Virus genome (UHGV): UHGV-0008871
DNA length: 47,120 nt
Source: a virus
Reading direction: 5' to 3' (one strand)
This document shows positions 3,163 through 34,500 of the stretch, in pieces. The notes under the pieces are model-generated. The model saw nothing but the letters and a program-made list of their open reading frames with translations, was not told the origin of the DNA and searched no databases. The stretch's first letter is position 1; every line of letters begins with the position of its first letter. The position numbers were made by a program, and so were the translations under genes.

Positions 3163-3380
3163 TTCGAACCTCTCTGTTTACTGATAAGCTCCAGATCTTC
3201 CTGGCAACTTGCACAAGTCCGACAACCCTGAACGGCCAGGCGTCTTAGCTCATCTATGGGATCGCCACACTCACAACAATGAGTGGCAGATACAGCCTGG
3301 TGGTTCAGGCGGCGCATTTTTATTGCTGTGTTGCGCTGTAATTCTTCAATTTCTGATGCTGAATCAATGATGTCTGCCAT
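3159..3380 (-). CDS. TraR/DksA-family C4 zinc-finger protein (lambda orf73-like, 73 aa)
   Basis: CxxC...CxxC motif (CCECGDPI...CRTCASC) in a 73-aa protein; 4-nt overlap with the downstream gene. Confidence 0.7.
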   Translation of the reverse strand: MADIIDSASEIEELQRNTAIKMRRLNHQAVSATHCCECGDPIDELRRLAVQGCRTCASCQEDLELISKQRGSK

Positions 3381-4123: not shown

Positions 4124-4794
4124 TGCTCCCCAAATACAAAACCAATTTCAGCCAGTGCCTCGTCCATTTTTTCGATGAACTCCGGCACCATCTCGTCAAA
4201 ACTCGCCATGTACTTTTCATCCCGCTCAACCACGACATAATGCAGGCCTTCACGCTTCATACGCGGGTCATAGTTGGCAAAGTACCAGGCATCTTTTCGC
4301 GTCACCCACATGCTGTACTGCACCTGGGCCATGTAAGCCGACTTTATGGCCTCGAAACCACCGAGCCGGAACTTCATGAAATCCCGGGAGGTAAACGGGC
4401 ATTTCAGCTCAAGGCCATTGCCGTCACTGCATAAACCATCGGGAGAGCAGGCGGTGCGCATACTTTCGTCGCGATAGATGATCGGGGATTCAGTAACATT
4501 CACGCCGGAAGTGAATTCAAACAGGGTTCTGGCGTCGTTCTCGTACTGTTTTCCCCAGGCCAGCGCCTTAGCATTAACTTCCGGAGCCACACCGGTGCAA
4601 ACCTCAGCCAGCAGGGTGTGGAAGTAGGACATTTTCATGTCAGGCCACTTCTTTCCTGAGCGGGGCTTTGCTATCACGTTGTGAACTTCTGAAGCGGTGA
4701 TGACGCCGAGCCGTAATTTGTGCCATGCATCATCCCCCTGTTCGACAGCTCTCACGTCGATCCCGGTACGCTGCAGGATAATGTCCGATGTCAT
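4114..4794 (-). CDS. exo: Lambda exonuclease (Red alpha), 226 aa
   Basis: Near residue-for-residue match to recalled lambda Exo (…[53 protein letters not shown]…GEQWR); ATGA-type overlap with bet. Confidence 0.95.
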
Positions 4795-5576
4795 GCTGCC
4801 ACCTTCTGCTCAGTGGCTTTCTGTTTCAGGAATCCAAGAGCTTTCACTGCTTCGGCCTGTGTCAGTTCTGACGATGCGCGAATGTCGCGGCGAAATATCT
4901 GGGAACAGAGCGGCAATAAGTCGTCATCCCATGTTTTATCCAGGGCGATCAGCAGAGTGTTAATCTCCTGCATGGTTTCATCGTTAACCGGAGTGATGTC
5001 GCGTTCTGGCTGACGTTCTGCAGTGTATGCAGTATTTTCGACAATGCGCTCGGCTTCATCCTTGTCATAGATACCAGCAAATCCGAAGGCCAGACGGGCA
5101 CACTGAATCATGGCTTTATGCCGTAACATCCGTTTGGGATGCGACTGCCACGGCCCCGTGATTTCTCTGCCTTCGCGGGTTTTGAATGGTTCGCGGCGGC
5201 ATTCATCCATCCATTCGGTAACGCAGATCGGATGATTACGGTCCTTGCGGTAAATCCGGCATGTACAGGATTCATTGTCCTGCTCAAAGTCCATGCCATC
5301 AAACTGCTGGTTTTCATTGATGATGCGGGACCAGCCATCAACGCCCACCACCGGAACGATGCCATTCTGCTTATCAGGAAAGGCGTAAATTTCTTTCGTC
5401 CATGGATTAAGGCCGTACTGGTTGGCAACGATCAGTAATGCGATGAACTGCGCATCGCTGGCATCACCTTTAAATGCCGTCTGGCGAAGAGTGGTGATCA
5501 GTTCCTGTGGGTCGACAGAATCCATGCCGACGCGTTCAGCCAGCTTCCCAGCCAGCGTTGCGAGTGCTGTACTCAT
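4791..5576 (-). CDS. bet: Lambda Bet (Red beta) single-strand annealing protein, 261 aa
   Basis: Matches recalled lambda Bet ([66 protein letters not shown]…). Confidence 0.95.
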
Positions 5577-5998: not shown

Positions 5999-6096
5999 TT
6001 TTTATAAGCGTCGACGGCCTCACGAAACATCTTTTCATCGCCAATAAAAGTGGCGATAGTGAATTTAGTCTGGATAGCCATAAGTGTTTGGTCCAT
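5953..6096 (-). CDS. kil: Lambda Kil (host cell-division inhibitor, 47 aa)
   Basis: [47 protein letters not shown] inside the longer track ORF; start at the internal Met, overlapping cIII as in lambda. Confidence 0.85.
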
Positions 6097-6229
6097 TTTT
6101 TGGGACTCCTGGCTGATTAAGTATGTCGATAAGGCGTTTCCATCCGTCACGTAATTTACGGGTGATTCGTTCAAGTAAAGATTCGGAAGGGCAGCCAGCA
6201 ACAGGCCACCCTGCAATGGCATATTGCAT
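6065..6229 (-). CDS. cIII: Lambda cIII (FtsH/HflB inhibitor that stabilises cII), 54 aa
   Basis: Hand translation of the minus strand gives [54 protein letters not shown]; below the 60-aa track cutoff. Confidence 0.9.
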   Translation of the reverse strand: MQYAIAGWPVAGCPSESLLERITRKLRDGWKRLIDILNQPGVPKNGPNTYGYPD

Positions 6230-6301
6230 GGTGTGCTCCTTATTTATACATAACGAAAAACGCCTCGAGTGAAGCGTTATTGGTATGCGGTAACGCCGCG
6301 C

Positions 6302-6670
6302 TCAGGCGGCTTTGATAGTCATATCATCTGAATCAAATATTCCTGATGTATCGATATCGGTAATTCTTATTCCTTCGCTACCATCCATTGGAGGCCATCC
6401 TTCCTGACCATTTCCATCATTCCAGTCGAACTCACACACAACACCATATGCATTTAAGTCGCTTGAAATTGCTATAAGCAGAGCATGTTGCGCCAGCATG
6501 ATTAATACAGCATTTAATACAGAGCCGTGTTTATTGAGTCGGTATTCAGAGTCTGACCAGAAATTATTAATCTGGTGAAGTTTTTCCTCTGTCATTACGT
6601 CATGGTCGATTTCAATTTCTATTGATGCTTTCCAGTCGTAATCAATGATGTATTTTTTGATGTTTGACAT
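6302..6670 (-). CDS. ea10: Lambda Ea10-like early protein (122 aa)
   Basis: Size, position between cIII and sieB, and acidic C-terminus match lambda ea10 as I recall it. Confidence 0.6.
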   Translation of the reverse strand: MSNIKKYIIDYDWKASIEIEIDHDVMTEEKLHQINNFWSDSEYRLNKHGSVLNAVLIMLAQHALLIAISSDLNAYGVVCEFDWNDGNGQEGWPPMDGSEGIRITDIDTSGIFDSDDMTIKAA

Positions 6671-6692
6671 CTATTCATATCCTCACAGATAA

Positions 6693-6712
6693 AAAATCGC
6701 CCTCACATTGGA
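6693..6712 (-). terminator. Putative rho-independent terminator on the leftward transcript (hairpin gccctc/gagggc followed by a U-run)
   Basis: Minus-strand reading: gccctccaatgtgagggcgatttttt. Confidence 0.4.
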
Positions 6713-6930
6713 GGGCAAAGAAGATTTCCAATAATCAGAACAAGTCGGCTCCTGTTTAGTTACGAGCGACATTGCTCAGTGTATTCACTCGTTGGAATGA
6801 ATACACAGTGCAGTGTTTATTAGTATGCCTGTCTTTTAACCACATCAGGCTCGGTGGTTCTCGTGTACCCCTACAGCGAGAAATCGGATAAACTCTATTC
6901 ACCCCTACAGAGAGCAAAAGAGAAACGCCG

Positions 6931-7512
6931 ATGAACAACTCATGGTGGCAGGAACTAATGCATTTTTTCCTGCAAGGAATGACACTTAAACAGTTGATTC
7001 ATATGCTAATCATCCTAATCATATTGATTATTGTTATGCCTGTAAGCGTAAAAGAATGGATAAACCTGCATAATCCAGAAATCCTTCCTCATTACTGGAT
7101 GTATTACATCCTGTTGTTTTGCGTTAGCTATGTGCTTAACGGCGTTGTTAATTCCGCTTATCACGCTGTGACTGAAAGAATTGAGATATTCGCTGCTCAG
7201 AAGCGCAAATCTAAAGAAGAGAAATACGTGCAAGATTTGTTTGATTCGTTAACTCTTGGAGAAAGAGCGTATTTGGCATTCGCTGTAGCCGCTAATAACC
7301 AGCTAAAGACAGAAAAGGGAAGCCCTGAAGCAATCTCATTGCTCGAAAAAGGGCTTCTTATTCGGGTACCTTCTGCTACTGGATATCCTGAAATCGACCG
7401 TTTTGTTATCCCGGAACGCTATAGAAATGAGTGCTACATTAGGTTTGCTGGGAAGAAAGACAGTCTTATGGATGAACTTATCGCTCAGGATAAGCATGGC
7501 AAAAACAAGTAA
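6931..7512 (+). CDS. sieB: Superinfection exclusion protein B (193 aa, N-terminal membrane segment)
   Basis: Opposite orientation to the pL operon between ea10 and N, as lambda sieB; hydrophobic N-terminus (LIHMLIILIILIIVMPV). Confidence 0.7.
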   Translation: MNNSWWQELMHFFLQGMTLKQLIHMLIILIILIIVMPVSVKEWINLHNPEILPHYWMYYILLFCVSYVLNGVVNSAYHAVTERIEIFAAQKRKSKEEKYVQDLFDSLTLGERAYLAFAVAANNQLKTEKGSPEAISLLEKGLLIRVPSATGYPEIDRFVIPERYRNECYIRFAGKKDSLMDELIAQDKHGKNK

Positions 7513-7528
7513 TTAGCAAATTAATTTA

Positions 7529-7801
7529 TCATCTCGCCGTCAGTTGTTTTGATTTCCGGTAGCCTGCCGCGTAAATGGCTACGTTTGGCAGGCAAATACT
7601 TCCACTGCATTCATCTGCCTTCTTGCAGCGAAGGCTTCCGAGTGATGCTGCTTTGTCTGCTCTGACGCAACCAGAGAGCTTTAGCGCAATTTTTCGCGCC
7701 AGTCGCTGTTCTTGCATTGCCTGCTCACGTTGAGCCTGTCTGCGTGCTCTGCGGCGATTTCTGGCGTTATCGTCAGCCAGATATGTAATGACTACTGCCA
7801 T
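7529..7801 (-). CDS. N: N-type transcription antiterminator, P22 gp24-like (90 aa)
   Basis: Arginine-rich motif NARNRRRARRQAQRE and C-terminus VAIYAAGYRKSKQLTAR resemble recalled P22 gene 24 protein; first gene of the leftward operon. Confidence 0.75.
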   Translation of the reverse strand: MAVVITYLADDNARNRRRARRQAQREQAMQEQRLARKIALKLSGCVRADKAASLGSLRCKKADECSGSICLPNVAIYAAGYRKSKQLTAR

Positions 7802-7909
7802 GTTGACCTCCGATGATTGACTTTGGCGGTGACGCGCCGGGTGCTTATCTTCCGGTTGCCGTCGTGCAGCTGCACTTCACGTCACCCCAAAGCCAACTAC
7901 TCTTTGGTT

Positions 7910-7949
7910 CCCGCATTTCGGCGGGACAATCCCATCAATGTTAAAGAGC
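7910..7949 (-). promoter_or_regulatory. nutL candidate: boxA (gctctttaaca) and boxB hairpin (cccgccgaaatgcggg) on the leftward transcript
   Basis: The same boxA/boxB pair recurs downstream of cro at 9037-9079. Confidence 0.6.
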
Positions 7950-7954
7950 CTGCC

Positions 7955-8092
7955 AATCTGTTCCGTTTGGCTACCAGCGTCCTGCCGATGACTTAAATTT
8001 AAGATTTCTTTAACTATTGGTCAAGAGCGTTTTTGAAGAAAACTTAAATTTTGTTGCGAAGCTTAAGTTTTGCTTTGATTTTTAAAGGAAAG
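7955..8092. promoter_or_regulatory. OL/pL region: AT-rich tract with repeated TTAAGn/ACTTAA half-site-like motifs
   Basis: Repeats acttaaatttaaga, aaacttaaatttt, gcttaagtttt upstream of N; analogous motifs occur in the OR region. Confidence 0.5.
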
Positions 8093-8114
8093 AAAAAAAG
8101 GGGCGAATGCCCCT
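8090..8114 (-). terminator. Rho-independent terminator right after the repressor gene (hairpin aggggc-gaat-gcccct plus U-run on the minus strand)
   Basis: Read from the sequence; abuts the cI stop codon. Confidence 0.6.
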
Positions 8115-8764
8115 TATGGAAGGTTTGCTATTTTTGCATCGACAACTACACCGATGATTTTGCAGTTCCCGTTGATCTCAATCATCGGATATTGTGGGTT
8201 AAGTGGTTTTAGAAACCTTCTGCCAGCATCAATAACTAACTTCTTGAAAGTTGCCTCGTTTTCTCCTTCGAGCTTTGCCACTACCAGCTTCCCATTACGA
8301 GGTTCTACTTCAGGATCGACTAGTATTATCATCCCTTCCGGGATGCTAAGACCGGCTGGAGCCGTCATCGAATCACCCTTTACGTCCAGCCAAAACGAAT
8401 CTTCTGAACAATCTACGGTTGTATCGTACCAGTTATCTATTGCACGCTTATGATATGGCTCTACAGCTTCCATCCAACATCCTGCGCTTACCCAACTAAT
8501 TAGAGGATACGAACCTCTTGGATCATGCCTGCTGTGATAGGCAATGTTTGAAAGACTATCTTCTCCTTTCAACAAGTAATCAGGGGAGCACTGTAAAGCC
8601 TTGGCTAAAGCCAATAGGTTTTCGCCATTGGGCTCAGTTTCAGAACGCTCCCATTGGGAAATAGCAACATTAGACACGCCAACCATCTTGCCAAGGGCAG
8701 CCTGCCTAATCTTAAGTTCTTTTCTGCGAGCGCGAATACGCTCACCCATCAGTTGTGTATTCAT
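8114..8764 (-). CDS. cI: Prophage repressor, P22 C2-like (HTH plus LexA-like S24 self-cleavage domain), 216 aa
   Basis: MNTQLMGERIRARRKELKIRQAALGKMVGVSNVAISQWERSETEPNGENLLALAKALQCSPDYLL… plus GDSM…KL motifs; near-identical to recalled P22 c2. Confidence 0.9.
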   Translation of the reverse strand: MNTQLMGERIRARRKELKIRQAALGKMVGVSNVAISQWERSETEPNGENLLALAKALQCSPDYLLKGEDSLSNIAYHSRHDPRGSYPLISWVSAGCWMEAVEPYHKRAIDNWYDTTVDCSEDSFWLDVKGDSMTAPAGLSIPEGMIILVDPEVEPRNGKLVVAKLEGENEATFKKLVIDAGRRFLKPLNPQYPMIEINGNCKIIGVVVDAKIANLP

Positions 8765-29526: not shown

Positions 29527-29964
29527 ATGGCGAACCCATTAGTACCGCAGGGCTTTCTTAACCGCGTACGCGGGGCTCTTTCCGTCACGGATACACCGGC
29601 GCTGAACGTTTCGGCGTCGTACCTGGCAAAGGACGGCATTAGCCTACGTCCGGATGGCCCGGCGACCGACATCATCCCTACGATGACCGGAACCGTCGGC
29701 AGCCAGGCGCCGTATCAGCAGGTAACGCTGACCGTGCATCTCCTGAAAACTCAGGGGCTGGGCGAAAGCTACCGGCAGCGCTTTTTAACCGACACGTCGC
29801 TGGGTGAAATCGTGGTGACGCCGGATGCAACGACGTTCGGCAATATCACGCTGCTCAACTGCTACCTGGTCAACTTCAACGAGCTGGCTTTCAGCGGGAT
29901 GGACCCGGCTTTTGTGGTAACCATCAGCGGCTATATGGTTACCAACGACAACATGTGGGTGTAA
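29527..29964 (+). CDS. Tail tube protein (putative), 145 aa
   Basis: Size and position after the sheath-like gene. Confidence 0.5.
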   Translation: MANPLVPQGFLNRVRGALSVTDTPALNVSASYLAKDGISLRPDGPATDIIPTMTGTVGSQAPYQQVTLTVHLLKTQGLGESYRQRFLTDTSLGEIVVTPDATTFGNITLLNCYLVNFNELAFSGMDPAFVVTISGYMVTNDNMWV

Positions 29965-33466: not shown

Positions 33467-34500
33467 GATATTATGATATTGAGATAACCATTCCTGCTGA
33501 AGGTGCCTCTCCGGAAAGAACGATAAAATACAGTAGCCATAAGAACGGAGTTTACAACCCCGGCGCCCTGATGATTGAGTTTGATATCCTCAGGTACGGT
33601 GAATCGACTCCCCAGGGCGAAACTCACCTGACCATCTGGGGTATTGGCCCAAAAGAAATGCAGCAGGCTCGCCAGAATTTTTTTGGCAAAAAAATTAAAA
33701 TATTCCTTGGGATGAAAGACGGGCTGCCATTGGCTGGCAAGGTTACCGCACCAAAACTGGTATTGGATGGCGTGATAAATCAGGTCTTTGGTAACTGGCA
33801 GGGTATTGAGTTACGACTTGACTTCATAATCGTGGTTGGTCCTGTCCAGAACGTGCCAAATAACAAACCCGTACCCCTTCCTTTAACCTTTGACTGGAAG
33901 GAGGGGCAGAAGCTTTCTGTAGCCCTCACGCAGTGTTTTATGAACATCAGAGGGTATACGTTCAATATCAACATAAGCGACCGGCTAATCCTTAATCATT
34001 ACCGGGGGCTGTTTTGTGATGACATTGTCACCCTGGCCAAGGACCTTAATGCTTTTTCACGTTCCAGAATTCGCGATAGCGGGTACTCTGGTGTAGAGAT
34101 CGCAATAGTGAATGGTAATGAGATCCGGGTATGGGATAACGATTATGATAACCACCCGGATAAGACTTCTGTTTCCAGCGCCGTAGCCAGAAGCAACAGC
34201 CCAACCCAAATAGATTTCAAGGATTTGATAGGGCAGCCGACATGGGTGGCATTTAACACAATCAGCATGGCGTGCGTAATGCGCGGTGATATTCAGGTTG
34301 GCGATCACATCCTGATGCCTAAAAAAAGCACTCCGTTGATACAGGCCTCTTCGTATTCTCAGTATCGAGAAGACTCTGCCTTTACTGGCGACTTTATTGT
34401 GAACTCCGTTCGCCTGTTAGGGAATAGCAGGCAACCAACGGCAGAGGCATGGGTAACAATTATTGAGGCTTCCCCTTTCATTAAGGCAGGTAGTGCATGA
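33463..34500 (+). CDS. Putative baseplate hub / tail protein (345 aa)
   Basis: Position upstream of the spike-like and J-like baseplate genes. Confidence 0.45.
   Translation: MRYYDIEITIPAEGASPERTIKYSSHKNGVYNPGALMIEFDILRYGESTPQGETHLTIWGIGPKEMQQARQNFFGKKIKIFLGMKDGLPLAGKVTAPKLVLDGVINQVFGNWQGIELRLDFIIVVGPVQNVPNNKPVPLPLTFDWKEGQKLSVALTQCFMNIRGYTFNINISDRLILNHYRGLFCDDIVTLAKDLNAFSRSRIRDSGYSGVEIAIVNGNEIRVWDNDYDNHPDKTSVSSAVARSNSPTQIDFKDLIGQPTWVAFNTISMACVMRGDIQVGDHILMPKKSTPLIQASSYSQYREDSAFTGDFIVNSVRLLGNSRQPTAEAWVTIIEASPFIKAGSA

Follow-up and report, generated by a model that had tools for sequence, protein, structure and literature searches.

Between ea10 and ral, phage lambda encodes a small RNA, LPR1, since renamed PreS (Silverman et al., 2024 preprint, bioRxiv 10.1101/2024.10.31.621285). 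Lambda PreS is about 88 nt long, with a processed form of about 68 nt. It is strongly enriched with Hfq and depends on it, its expression is confined to the lytic cycle, and its 3' end is a known terminator, tL2a. Its seed—the 18 nt removed in the lpr1 seed-deletion mutant—activates translation of the host dnaN mRNA and represses alaS, as compensatory mutations attest, and regulation is abolished by the M1 mutation, by the M2 mutation, or by deletion of the seed. When PreS is deleted, the spontaneous yield of phage falls 2- to 4-fold and phage DNA replication is reduced. On how the 5' end of PreS is formed, the preprint is silent (all bioRxiv 10.1101/2024.10.31.621285).

A second control element of this kind of phage is known from P22, the annotation of which (BK000583) includes a sieB promoter, a 'sieB RNA start site', sieB itself and, inside sieB, the esc coding sequence. 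By pairing with the sieB mRNA, the P22 RNA sas switches which of the two sieB-encoded polypeptides is translated (PMC12197685, PMC7067206). This switch is credited to Ranade & Poteete 1993 (as cited in PMC12197685), and the sequence of sas RNA is given in a 2026 paper (PMC13397905).

The DNA considered here is the virus genome UHGV-0008871, 47,120 nt in length, which we call the window, and within it the interval 6671-6930, between ea10 and sieB. A preliminary description, made from the sequence, held that this interval is non-coding and structured, that it lacks the ral gene found in lambda at this position, and that it carries in its stead a terminator-like hairpin, an inverted repeat and a direct repeat. 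That the stretch is non-coding and structured was borne out, and all of the features noted were confirmed as real and non-random. They are known elements: tL2a and PreS at one end; the sieB promoter, mRNA start and sas region at the other. We are confident that 6671-6930 is the ordinary ea10-sieB spacer of the lambdoid early-left (pL) operon, in a common variant without ral and orf28, in which two described RNA-level control elements lie back to back. The region is already known and ordinary, and not a new element.

THE EARLY-LEFT OPERON AND ITS MISSING CASSETTE

The window is a lambdoid phage. On the minus strand, in the leftward operon and downstream of tL2a, lies ea10 (6302-6670; DUF2528, PF10800 at 2e-47, and annotated as such in lambda); bet (4791-5576, minus), gam, kil and cIII are also nearby. 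On the other side of the interval come sieB (6931-7512, plus; 193 aa; PF14163 at 1e-25, phrog_1301 at 6e-124), the gene for an N-type antiterminator (7529-7801, minus), that for a cI-like repressor (8114-8764, minus), and cro (from 8845, plus). On the minus strand at 6184-6242 is a full-length lambda cIII thermoregulator (Rfam RF01804; 88.5 bits, E = 1e-21), the one match outside 6671-6930 when 6000-8200 is scanned with Rfam in E-value mode. The N-type antiterminator is short (90 aa), and the annotation of VT1-Sakai assigns it to the phage-21 type; upstream of its gene, at about 7905-7950 on the minus strand, are a boxA-like sequence (GCTCTTTAACA) and a boxB-like hairpin (CCCGCCGAAATGCGGG). 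The window is thus a mosaic, in which the recombination genes resemble those of lambda, sieB that of P22, and N that of phage 21.

Between the N-like and cI-like genes, the promoter scan finds a pL-like promoter (TTGACC-17-TAAATT; 7996-8024, minus), from which the leftward transcript over 6671-6930 presumably comes. Early leftward RNA begun at this promoter (8024-7996) would pass through N, run antisense to sieB, traverse 6930-6671 and proceed into ea10. Further along, between ea10 and cIII, there is a second intrinsic-terminator-like hairpin on the minus strand at 6259-6278 (AACGCTTCACTCGAGGCGTT followed by TTTTCG), which is probably a further member of the lambda tL2 terminator cluster.

Over the 401 nt around 6671-6930, several environmental 'Lambda_...' phages match the window at 100%, and VT1-Sakai does so at 99.8%. 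Aligned with lambda, window positions 6600-6821 correspond to 33834-34055 (219/222 identical) and 6826-6910 to 34396-34480 (80/85 identical). Between these two blocks, by alignment and coordinate mapping, a 4-nt filler, AGTA (6822-6825), replaces the 340 bp of lambda 34056-34395, which hold ral (34087-34287) and orf28 (34271-34357). The preliminary description was right, then, about the absence of ral: no Ral-like ORF occurs between ea10 and sieB, and when the whole window was searched by tblastn with lambda Ral and Orf28, the best match had E = 0.72 and lay elsewhere. Since the cassette is absent, the window phage should be without restriction alleviation. Such phages are common. A 51-nt query that matches the ral-less junction exclusively finds it in 455 of 5426 complete E. 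coli genomes, and among the matches listed from these RefSeq genomes no annotated feature lies at the junction. This figure supersedes a count of 907 genomes, which was discarded because the two pieces that flank ral could be merged as one place.

Where the preliminary description went astray was in supposing that the structures stand instead of ral. All three are present in lambda, too, flanking ral in the alignment, and since lambda and the window are collinear on either side of the gap, the structures are conserved flanks of ral and not substitutes for it. A phage-specific structured element in ral's place—a new small RNA or regulatory region that compensates for ral, or replaces it—might be argued from the facts that ral is missing and that the region is structured and non-coding, but we give the idea almost no credence. 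Every one of the elements is found also in lambda, in P22-like phages and in other relatives that carry ral; all of them lie outside the ral cassette and match known functional RNAs; and the sequence unique to the junction amounts to 4 nt. What the window does show is that the ral cassette is optional, inserted in some phages between two elements of RNA control, and that in ral-less phages sas and PreS share one short, leftward, non-coding stretch.

THE PreS HOMOLOGUE AND ITS TERMINATOR

Judged by its sequence, the minus strand of 6690-6777 is a homologue of PreS with seed and terminator intact. Its 88 nt match lambda LPR1 at 87 positions, the sole difference being one base in the loop of the terminator. 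The limits of LPR1 are those of the authors' cloning and T7 primers, P810, P1103 and P1104 (GAGCAATGTCGC...GGGCGATTTTTTA), and the 5' end rests on these construct boundaries and on a band of ~88 nt rather than on a mapped end. Processing to about 68 nt would put the 5' end of the window RNA near 6757 on the minus strand. The seed (TGTTCTGATTATTGGAAA; 6725-6742, minus) is identical to that of lambda at all 18 positions and retains the M1 and M2 nucleotides; its duplex with the dnaN leader is predicted at -29.7 kcal/mol in the window, against -30.2 for lambda. The RNA as a whole folds with a z of -3.85. As in lambda, PreS of the window would act together with Hfq, its seed opening the ribosome-binding site of the dnaN leader and pairing with alaS as well, and by so acting would support phage DNA replication in the lytic cycle.

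The hairpin at the 3' end of this RNA had been reported at 6693-6712 as terminator-like. It is indeed a terminator, but both its coordinates and its strand need correction. GCCCTC (6699-6704) pairs with GAGGGC (6711-6716) in an extended stem at 6697-6718, and the terminator scan returns tL2a on the minus strand at 6689-6718, stem and U-tract together, with 8 pairs (5 G-C) and then TTTTTTAT (minus strand). The T-run is on the minus strand (6690-6696), and so the hairpin terminates leftward transcription and is no terminator related to sieB. tL2a supplies the 3' end of PreS and its Hfq-binding module, directly upstream of the ea10 ribosome-binding site.

PreS-like sequence is widespread. It occurs in 2215 of 5426 complete E. 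coli genomes, at 3188 places in all and up to 6 in a single genome, and among the matches listed from E. coli RefSeq no annotated feature lies upon it. Nor does Rfam 15 have a family that exceeds its gathering threshold over 6671-6930; PreS and sas both go unmatched, and a RyhB match over PreS was rejected as being at chance level (17.5 bits versus a gathering score of 55, E = 5.6). The locus goes unmentioned in the Hfq CLASH study of EHEC by Tree et al. 2014. For annotators there is a practical value in recognizing the PreS region, which will keep surfacing as an 'unexplained structured spacer'.

P22 (BK000583) has a diverged PreS-like sequence of its own (GAGCAATATCGCTCGTAAC...CGTTCTGGTTATTGGAGA...), at about 438-541 on the minus strand, upstream of gene 17. 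A separate terminator (GCCGCTC/GGGCGGC and a T-run) belongs to it, as does a 5' hairpin at the same position but of different sequence, and it falls outside the set of >=92% identity reported for LPR1. Among the sncRNA loci of PMC13397905 that were inspected, none lies at this position, and sas is apparently the first in genome order.

A COVARYING HAIRPIN AT THE PreS 5' BOUNDARY

The inverted repeat of the preliminary description is real, with gtgtattca at 6779-6787 and tgaatacac at 6798-6806, and the repeat search extends its arms to 6769-6790 and 6795-6816 (22 nt, 82% complementary). Perfect stems of at least 9 bp turn up in 8 of 1000 dinucleotide shuffles of 6671-6930. In the leftward strand, the repeat makes up a conserved RNA hairpin (6774-6811, minus), with a 14-bp stem, a CAAC loop and 2 outer pairs, situated directly 5' of PreS, and with a 3' foot that includes PreS nucleotides +1 to +4.

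The repeats are conserved among relatives. These were drawn from IMG/VR by the pattern GAGCAATNTCGCTCGTAAC, which gave 124 usable sites, the window and loci from phage records included, with 46 different 60-mers upstream. At the identical position they carry four unrelated stem sequences—GUGUAUUCAUUC/GAGUGAAUACAC, UAUAGCAGAUU/GAGUCUGCUAU, UAAUGCGGAUU/AUUCCGCAUU and UAAUGACCAUU/AGUGGUCAUU—each of which is predicted to fold there. When 55 distinct sequences are aligned, 98.2% of the cells of the 16-pair helix are paired, and 8 of the 16 pairs display double-sided changes. Slid controls reach 54% paired at most, and the covariation score of the hairpin is reached by none of 500 shuffles.

It is conceivable that the inverted repeat acts as DNA, instead, as a dyad to which a protein binds or as a recombination hot spot at a mosaic boundary. 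Mosaic junctions do lie immediately upstream, where many different genes converge on ...CGAATAAGCAC before the hairpin, and in phage 2G7b an extra gene is inserted at the edge of the repeat. Pairing is kept, however, by four unrelated stem sequences, more variety than any one DNA-binding protein would accept. Three positions, moreover, are G.U on the minus strand, where the plus strand or a cruciform would have C.A; this places the constraint on the leftward RNA. A role at the level of DNA is, on this evidence, improbable, and we regard the repeat as an RNA hairpin. The convergence has a further aspect: the TAA within CGAATAAGCAC is, in P22, the stop codon of orf87, and so the hairpin lies a few nucleotides past a stop codon.

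The stem is not quite perfect in the window. Both here and in VT1-Sakai, position 6778 is U, not G, producing a U.U mismatch (6807 x 6778) and a stem energy of -18.9 rather than -22.8 kcal/mol. Among the sampled loci, U at 6778 is confined to ral-less upstream contexts of the window type.

How might PreS arise? The consensus scan finds no sigma-70-like promoter in 6671-6930 on either strand, and inspection of the four hairpin variants discloses no consistent -10 or -35 for PreS. It seems likely that PreS is cut from the pL transcript rather than made from a promoter of its own. Leftward RNA from pL, after running antisense through sieB, would contain the conserved hairpin (6774-6811) and then PreS (6690-6777), and would end at tL2a; the hairpin, abutting the PreS 5' end, might mark the processing cut or shield it, and leave the upstream RNA with a 3' hairpin. 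A hairpin at the PreS 5' boundary may be undescribed so far, and its covariation provides a testable handle on PreS biogenesis, a matter that the preprint leaves unaddressed.

SMALL OPEN READING FRAMES

A 60-codon ORF with a PHROG match occupies the minus strand at 6756-6938, but it does not behave like a gene. Were it a real gene that has taken the place of ral, its match to phrog_31828 (function unknown; E = 4e-12, residues 24-60) would be accounted for, and so would the openness of its frame in other ral-less relatives, L073 for example. Other features argue the other way. It starts with TTG, opposite the start codon of sieB, and inspection finds no Shine-Dalgarno motif. The ORF is peculiar to the ral-less junction, which it crosses; in lambda and P22, its frame meets a TAA just before the hairpin. 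Its last 21 codons coincide with the hairpin and the 5' end of PreS, where variation takes the form of compensatory changes in base pairs and does not follow codons. It has no Pfam match, and in the phage, VT1-Sakai and RefSeq E. coli records examined no gene is annotated at its position. A real gene is very improbable, in our opinion, and we judge the ORF to be a gene-caller artefact, reaching from sas across the junction and the hairpin into the 5' end of PreS. As a family, phrog_31828 is probably made up of false gene calls over non-coding RNA elements. The other small ORFs of the region match nothing in PHROG or Pfam, and a 29-codon ORF inside PreS loses its ATG in the ATA variants.

THE sieB PROMOTER AND THE sas REGION

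The sieB promoter, PsieB, is at 6864-6894 on the plus strand (-35 TGTACC, 19-nt spacer, -10 TAAACT), and matches that of P22 (BK000583) at 31 of 31 positions. The P22 'sieB RNA start site', at 29727, maps to A6901 of the window, and the sieB 5' UTR is 6901-6930 (plus). The consensus scan misses PsieB because its -35 is weak and its spacer is 19 nt. In about 125 relatives from IMG/VR the -10 is TAAACT, TAAAAT, TATAAT or TAACAT, always TAnnnT and always at the same fixed position, which supports the assignment. The promoter, weak, constitutive and rightward, would start the sieB mRNA at 6901.

Opposite this start, on the minus strand at 6826-6935, is the homologue of sas, which agrees with the P22A-sas sequence of PMC13397905 at 107/110 positions. 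Its complementarity to sieB takes in the 5' UTR, the Shine-Dalgarno sequence and the AUG, and the homologue ends 68 nt before the start of Esc, an internal, in-frame ATG at 7003 (plus) that is M25 of sieB (by a frame check, and by the esc CDS annotated in P22). sas thus covers the AUG of sieB but not the Esc start, which fits the published translational switch. Leftward RNA over 6826-6935 would be the homologue of sas, which in P22 blocks SieB synthesis while translation of Esc, here from 7003, is still possible, and by such a switch the phage could evade its own exclusion system. The sas segment folds no better than shuffles (z = -0.9). Production of sas probably depends on pL transcription of the incoming phage. 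A promoter-like site on the minus strand at 7046-7018 was considered for sas and set aside, as the RNA would also cover the Esc start and does not fit; inspection upstream of 6935 revealed no consistent -10 or -35.

Within the first codons of sieB, at 6948-6973, there is a 13-nt inverted repeat (GCAGGAACTAATG/CATTTTTTCCTGC). As a leftward hairpin it ends about 12 nt before the sas 5' end, an arrangement that resembles the layout of PreS, hairpin first and 5' end next.

THE 10-NT DIRECT REPEAT

The direct repeat, too, exists, although its first copy had been placed at 6876-6886, about 10 nt away from its true position. The exact 10-mer acccctacag occurs at 6867-6876 and at 6901-6910, and at no other place in the 47-kb window; the 11-mer cacccctacag occurs once. 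Direct repeats of at least 10 nt appear in 18 of 1000 dinucleotide shuffles of 6671-6930. Copy 1 (ACCCCTACAG, plus strand) overlaps the -35 and spacer of PsieB, and is the centre of a perfect 12-bp palindrome (TGTACCCCTACA). Copy 2 (plus strand) is +1 to +10 of the sieB mRNA, with the start as annotated in P22. Both copies fall inside the homologue of P22 sas.

The repeat is constrained. In about 115 of about 125 IMG/VR loci with the promoter cassette, copy 2 stays 34 nt from copy 1, and this spacing is kept although the downstream leader and gene fall into at least 8 unrelated types. PsieB-type cassettes with both ACCCCTACAG copies drive at least 8 unrelated genes (in L073, at 1097-1600 on the minus strand, and in L134, L130, L161, L176, L129 and L187, for example); in L073, the place of sieB is occupied by the gene for a 167-aa Cys-rich protein. 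One possibility, that the copies are displayed in hairpin loops of sas in the manner of IS10 RNA-OUT, was rejected as unsupported by folding: the region of copy 2 folds much as shuffles do (z = -0.35 in the window, +0.35 in lambda), and good folds are limited to the L073 variant and to an invariant hairpin at copy 1. A literature search for the 9-mer of the repeat returned nothing relevant.

The direct repeat is real and constrained, then, and part of a promoter/leader cassette. ACCCCTACA could be a pair of operators, or a common nucleus for antisense pairing. The first of these, in which the ACCCCTACA repeat brackets the PsieB -10 as sites for a DNA-binding regulator and is not an RNA-level feature, would account for the fixed 34-bp spacing in about 115/125 relatives despite variation of the -10 and of the downstream gene, and for the perfect palindrome of copy 1. 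But copy 2 has no palindrome, the two copies do not covary across the IMG/VR cassette loci, a minority of relatives (the L042 type) retain the promoter but have lost copy 2, and neither a candidate protein nor a matching known operator was found. We consider operators unlikely. A shared ACCCCTACA site of either kind, if real, would let phages control one another's exclusion genes. What we retain is the constrained promoter/leader cassette, of which the conserved, 34-nt-spaced ACCCCTACA motif may be an undescribed component; the 10-nt repeat points to a constraint on this cassette, which in many prophages serves genes of the superinfection-exclusion type.

More can be made of the hairpin and the repeat together, if with much less assurance than we have in the identity of the spacer. 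The hairpin might be a dedicated module that releases PreS from the pL transcript and caps the upstream mRNA, the whole forming a portable 'hairpin-sRNA-terminator' cassette behind many genes, the diverged P22-like version included; and ACCCCTACA, at about -33 and +1, might be a shared recognition site. We offer this joint reading tentatively, as a possibility that may well prove wrong.

COMPARISON WITH KNOWN SYSTEMS

The hairpin at the PreS 5' boundary invites a functional analogy. RNase III sites of the T7 type are long imperfect hairpins in polycistronic early transcripts. Like them, the hairpin of the window comes directly after an upstream stop codon, and the 5' end of the downstream RNA is at its 3' foot, beside a 1x1 internal mismatch. 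Its stem differs in being just 14+2 bp, and the likeness here is one of geometry alone; processing of PreS by RNase E, or by another route, is equally possible.

RalA of the Rac prophage (PMC4041452) is likewise an Hfq-dependent sRNA beside a ral-type gene in a lambdoid prophage, but it is a different element. RalA, 179 nt long and encoded within ydaC opposite to ralR, is transcribed from a start site of its own and acts on the ralR mRNA, whereas the window has no ral and its RNAs are on the pL strand; by description the two are set apart.

With the sas/sieB-esc system of P22, the correspondence is close: the sieB allele is of the P22 type, the mRNA starts at the same nucleotide, and Esc begins at M25. 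The leader is 30 nt in the window and 31 nt in P22. In P22 the segment is followed by ral, whereas in the window it runs into the PreS hairpin, so that sas and PreS come to lie ~50 nt apart in one transcript.

Lambda is matched on both sides of the gap, where the flanks of its ral/orf28 cassette are conserved in the window; the cassette itself is absent. Like lambda PreS, the PreS of the window is on the leftward strand, immediately upstream of ea10, and it has the same terminator stem and U-tract. It differs in the base 5' of +1, which is U and not G and weakens the upstream hairpin, and in its upstream neighbour, which in lambda is ral and in the window is the sas/sieB region, instead.
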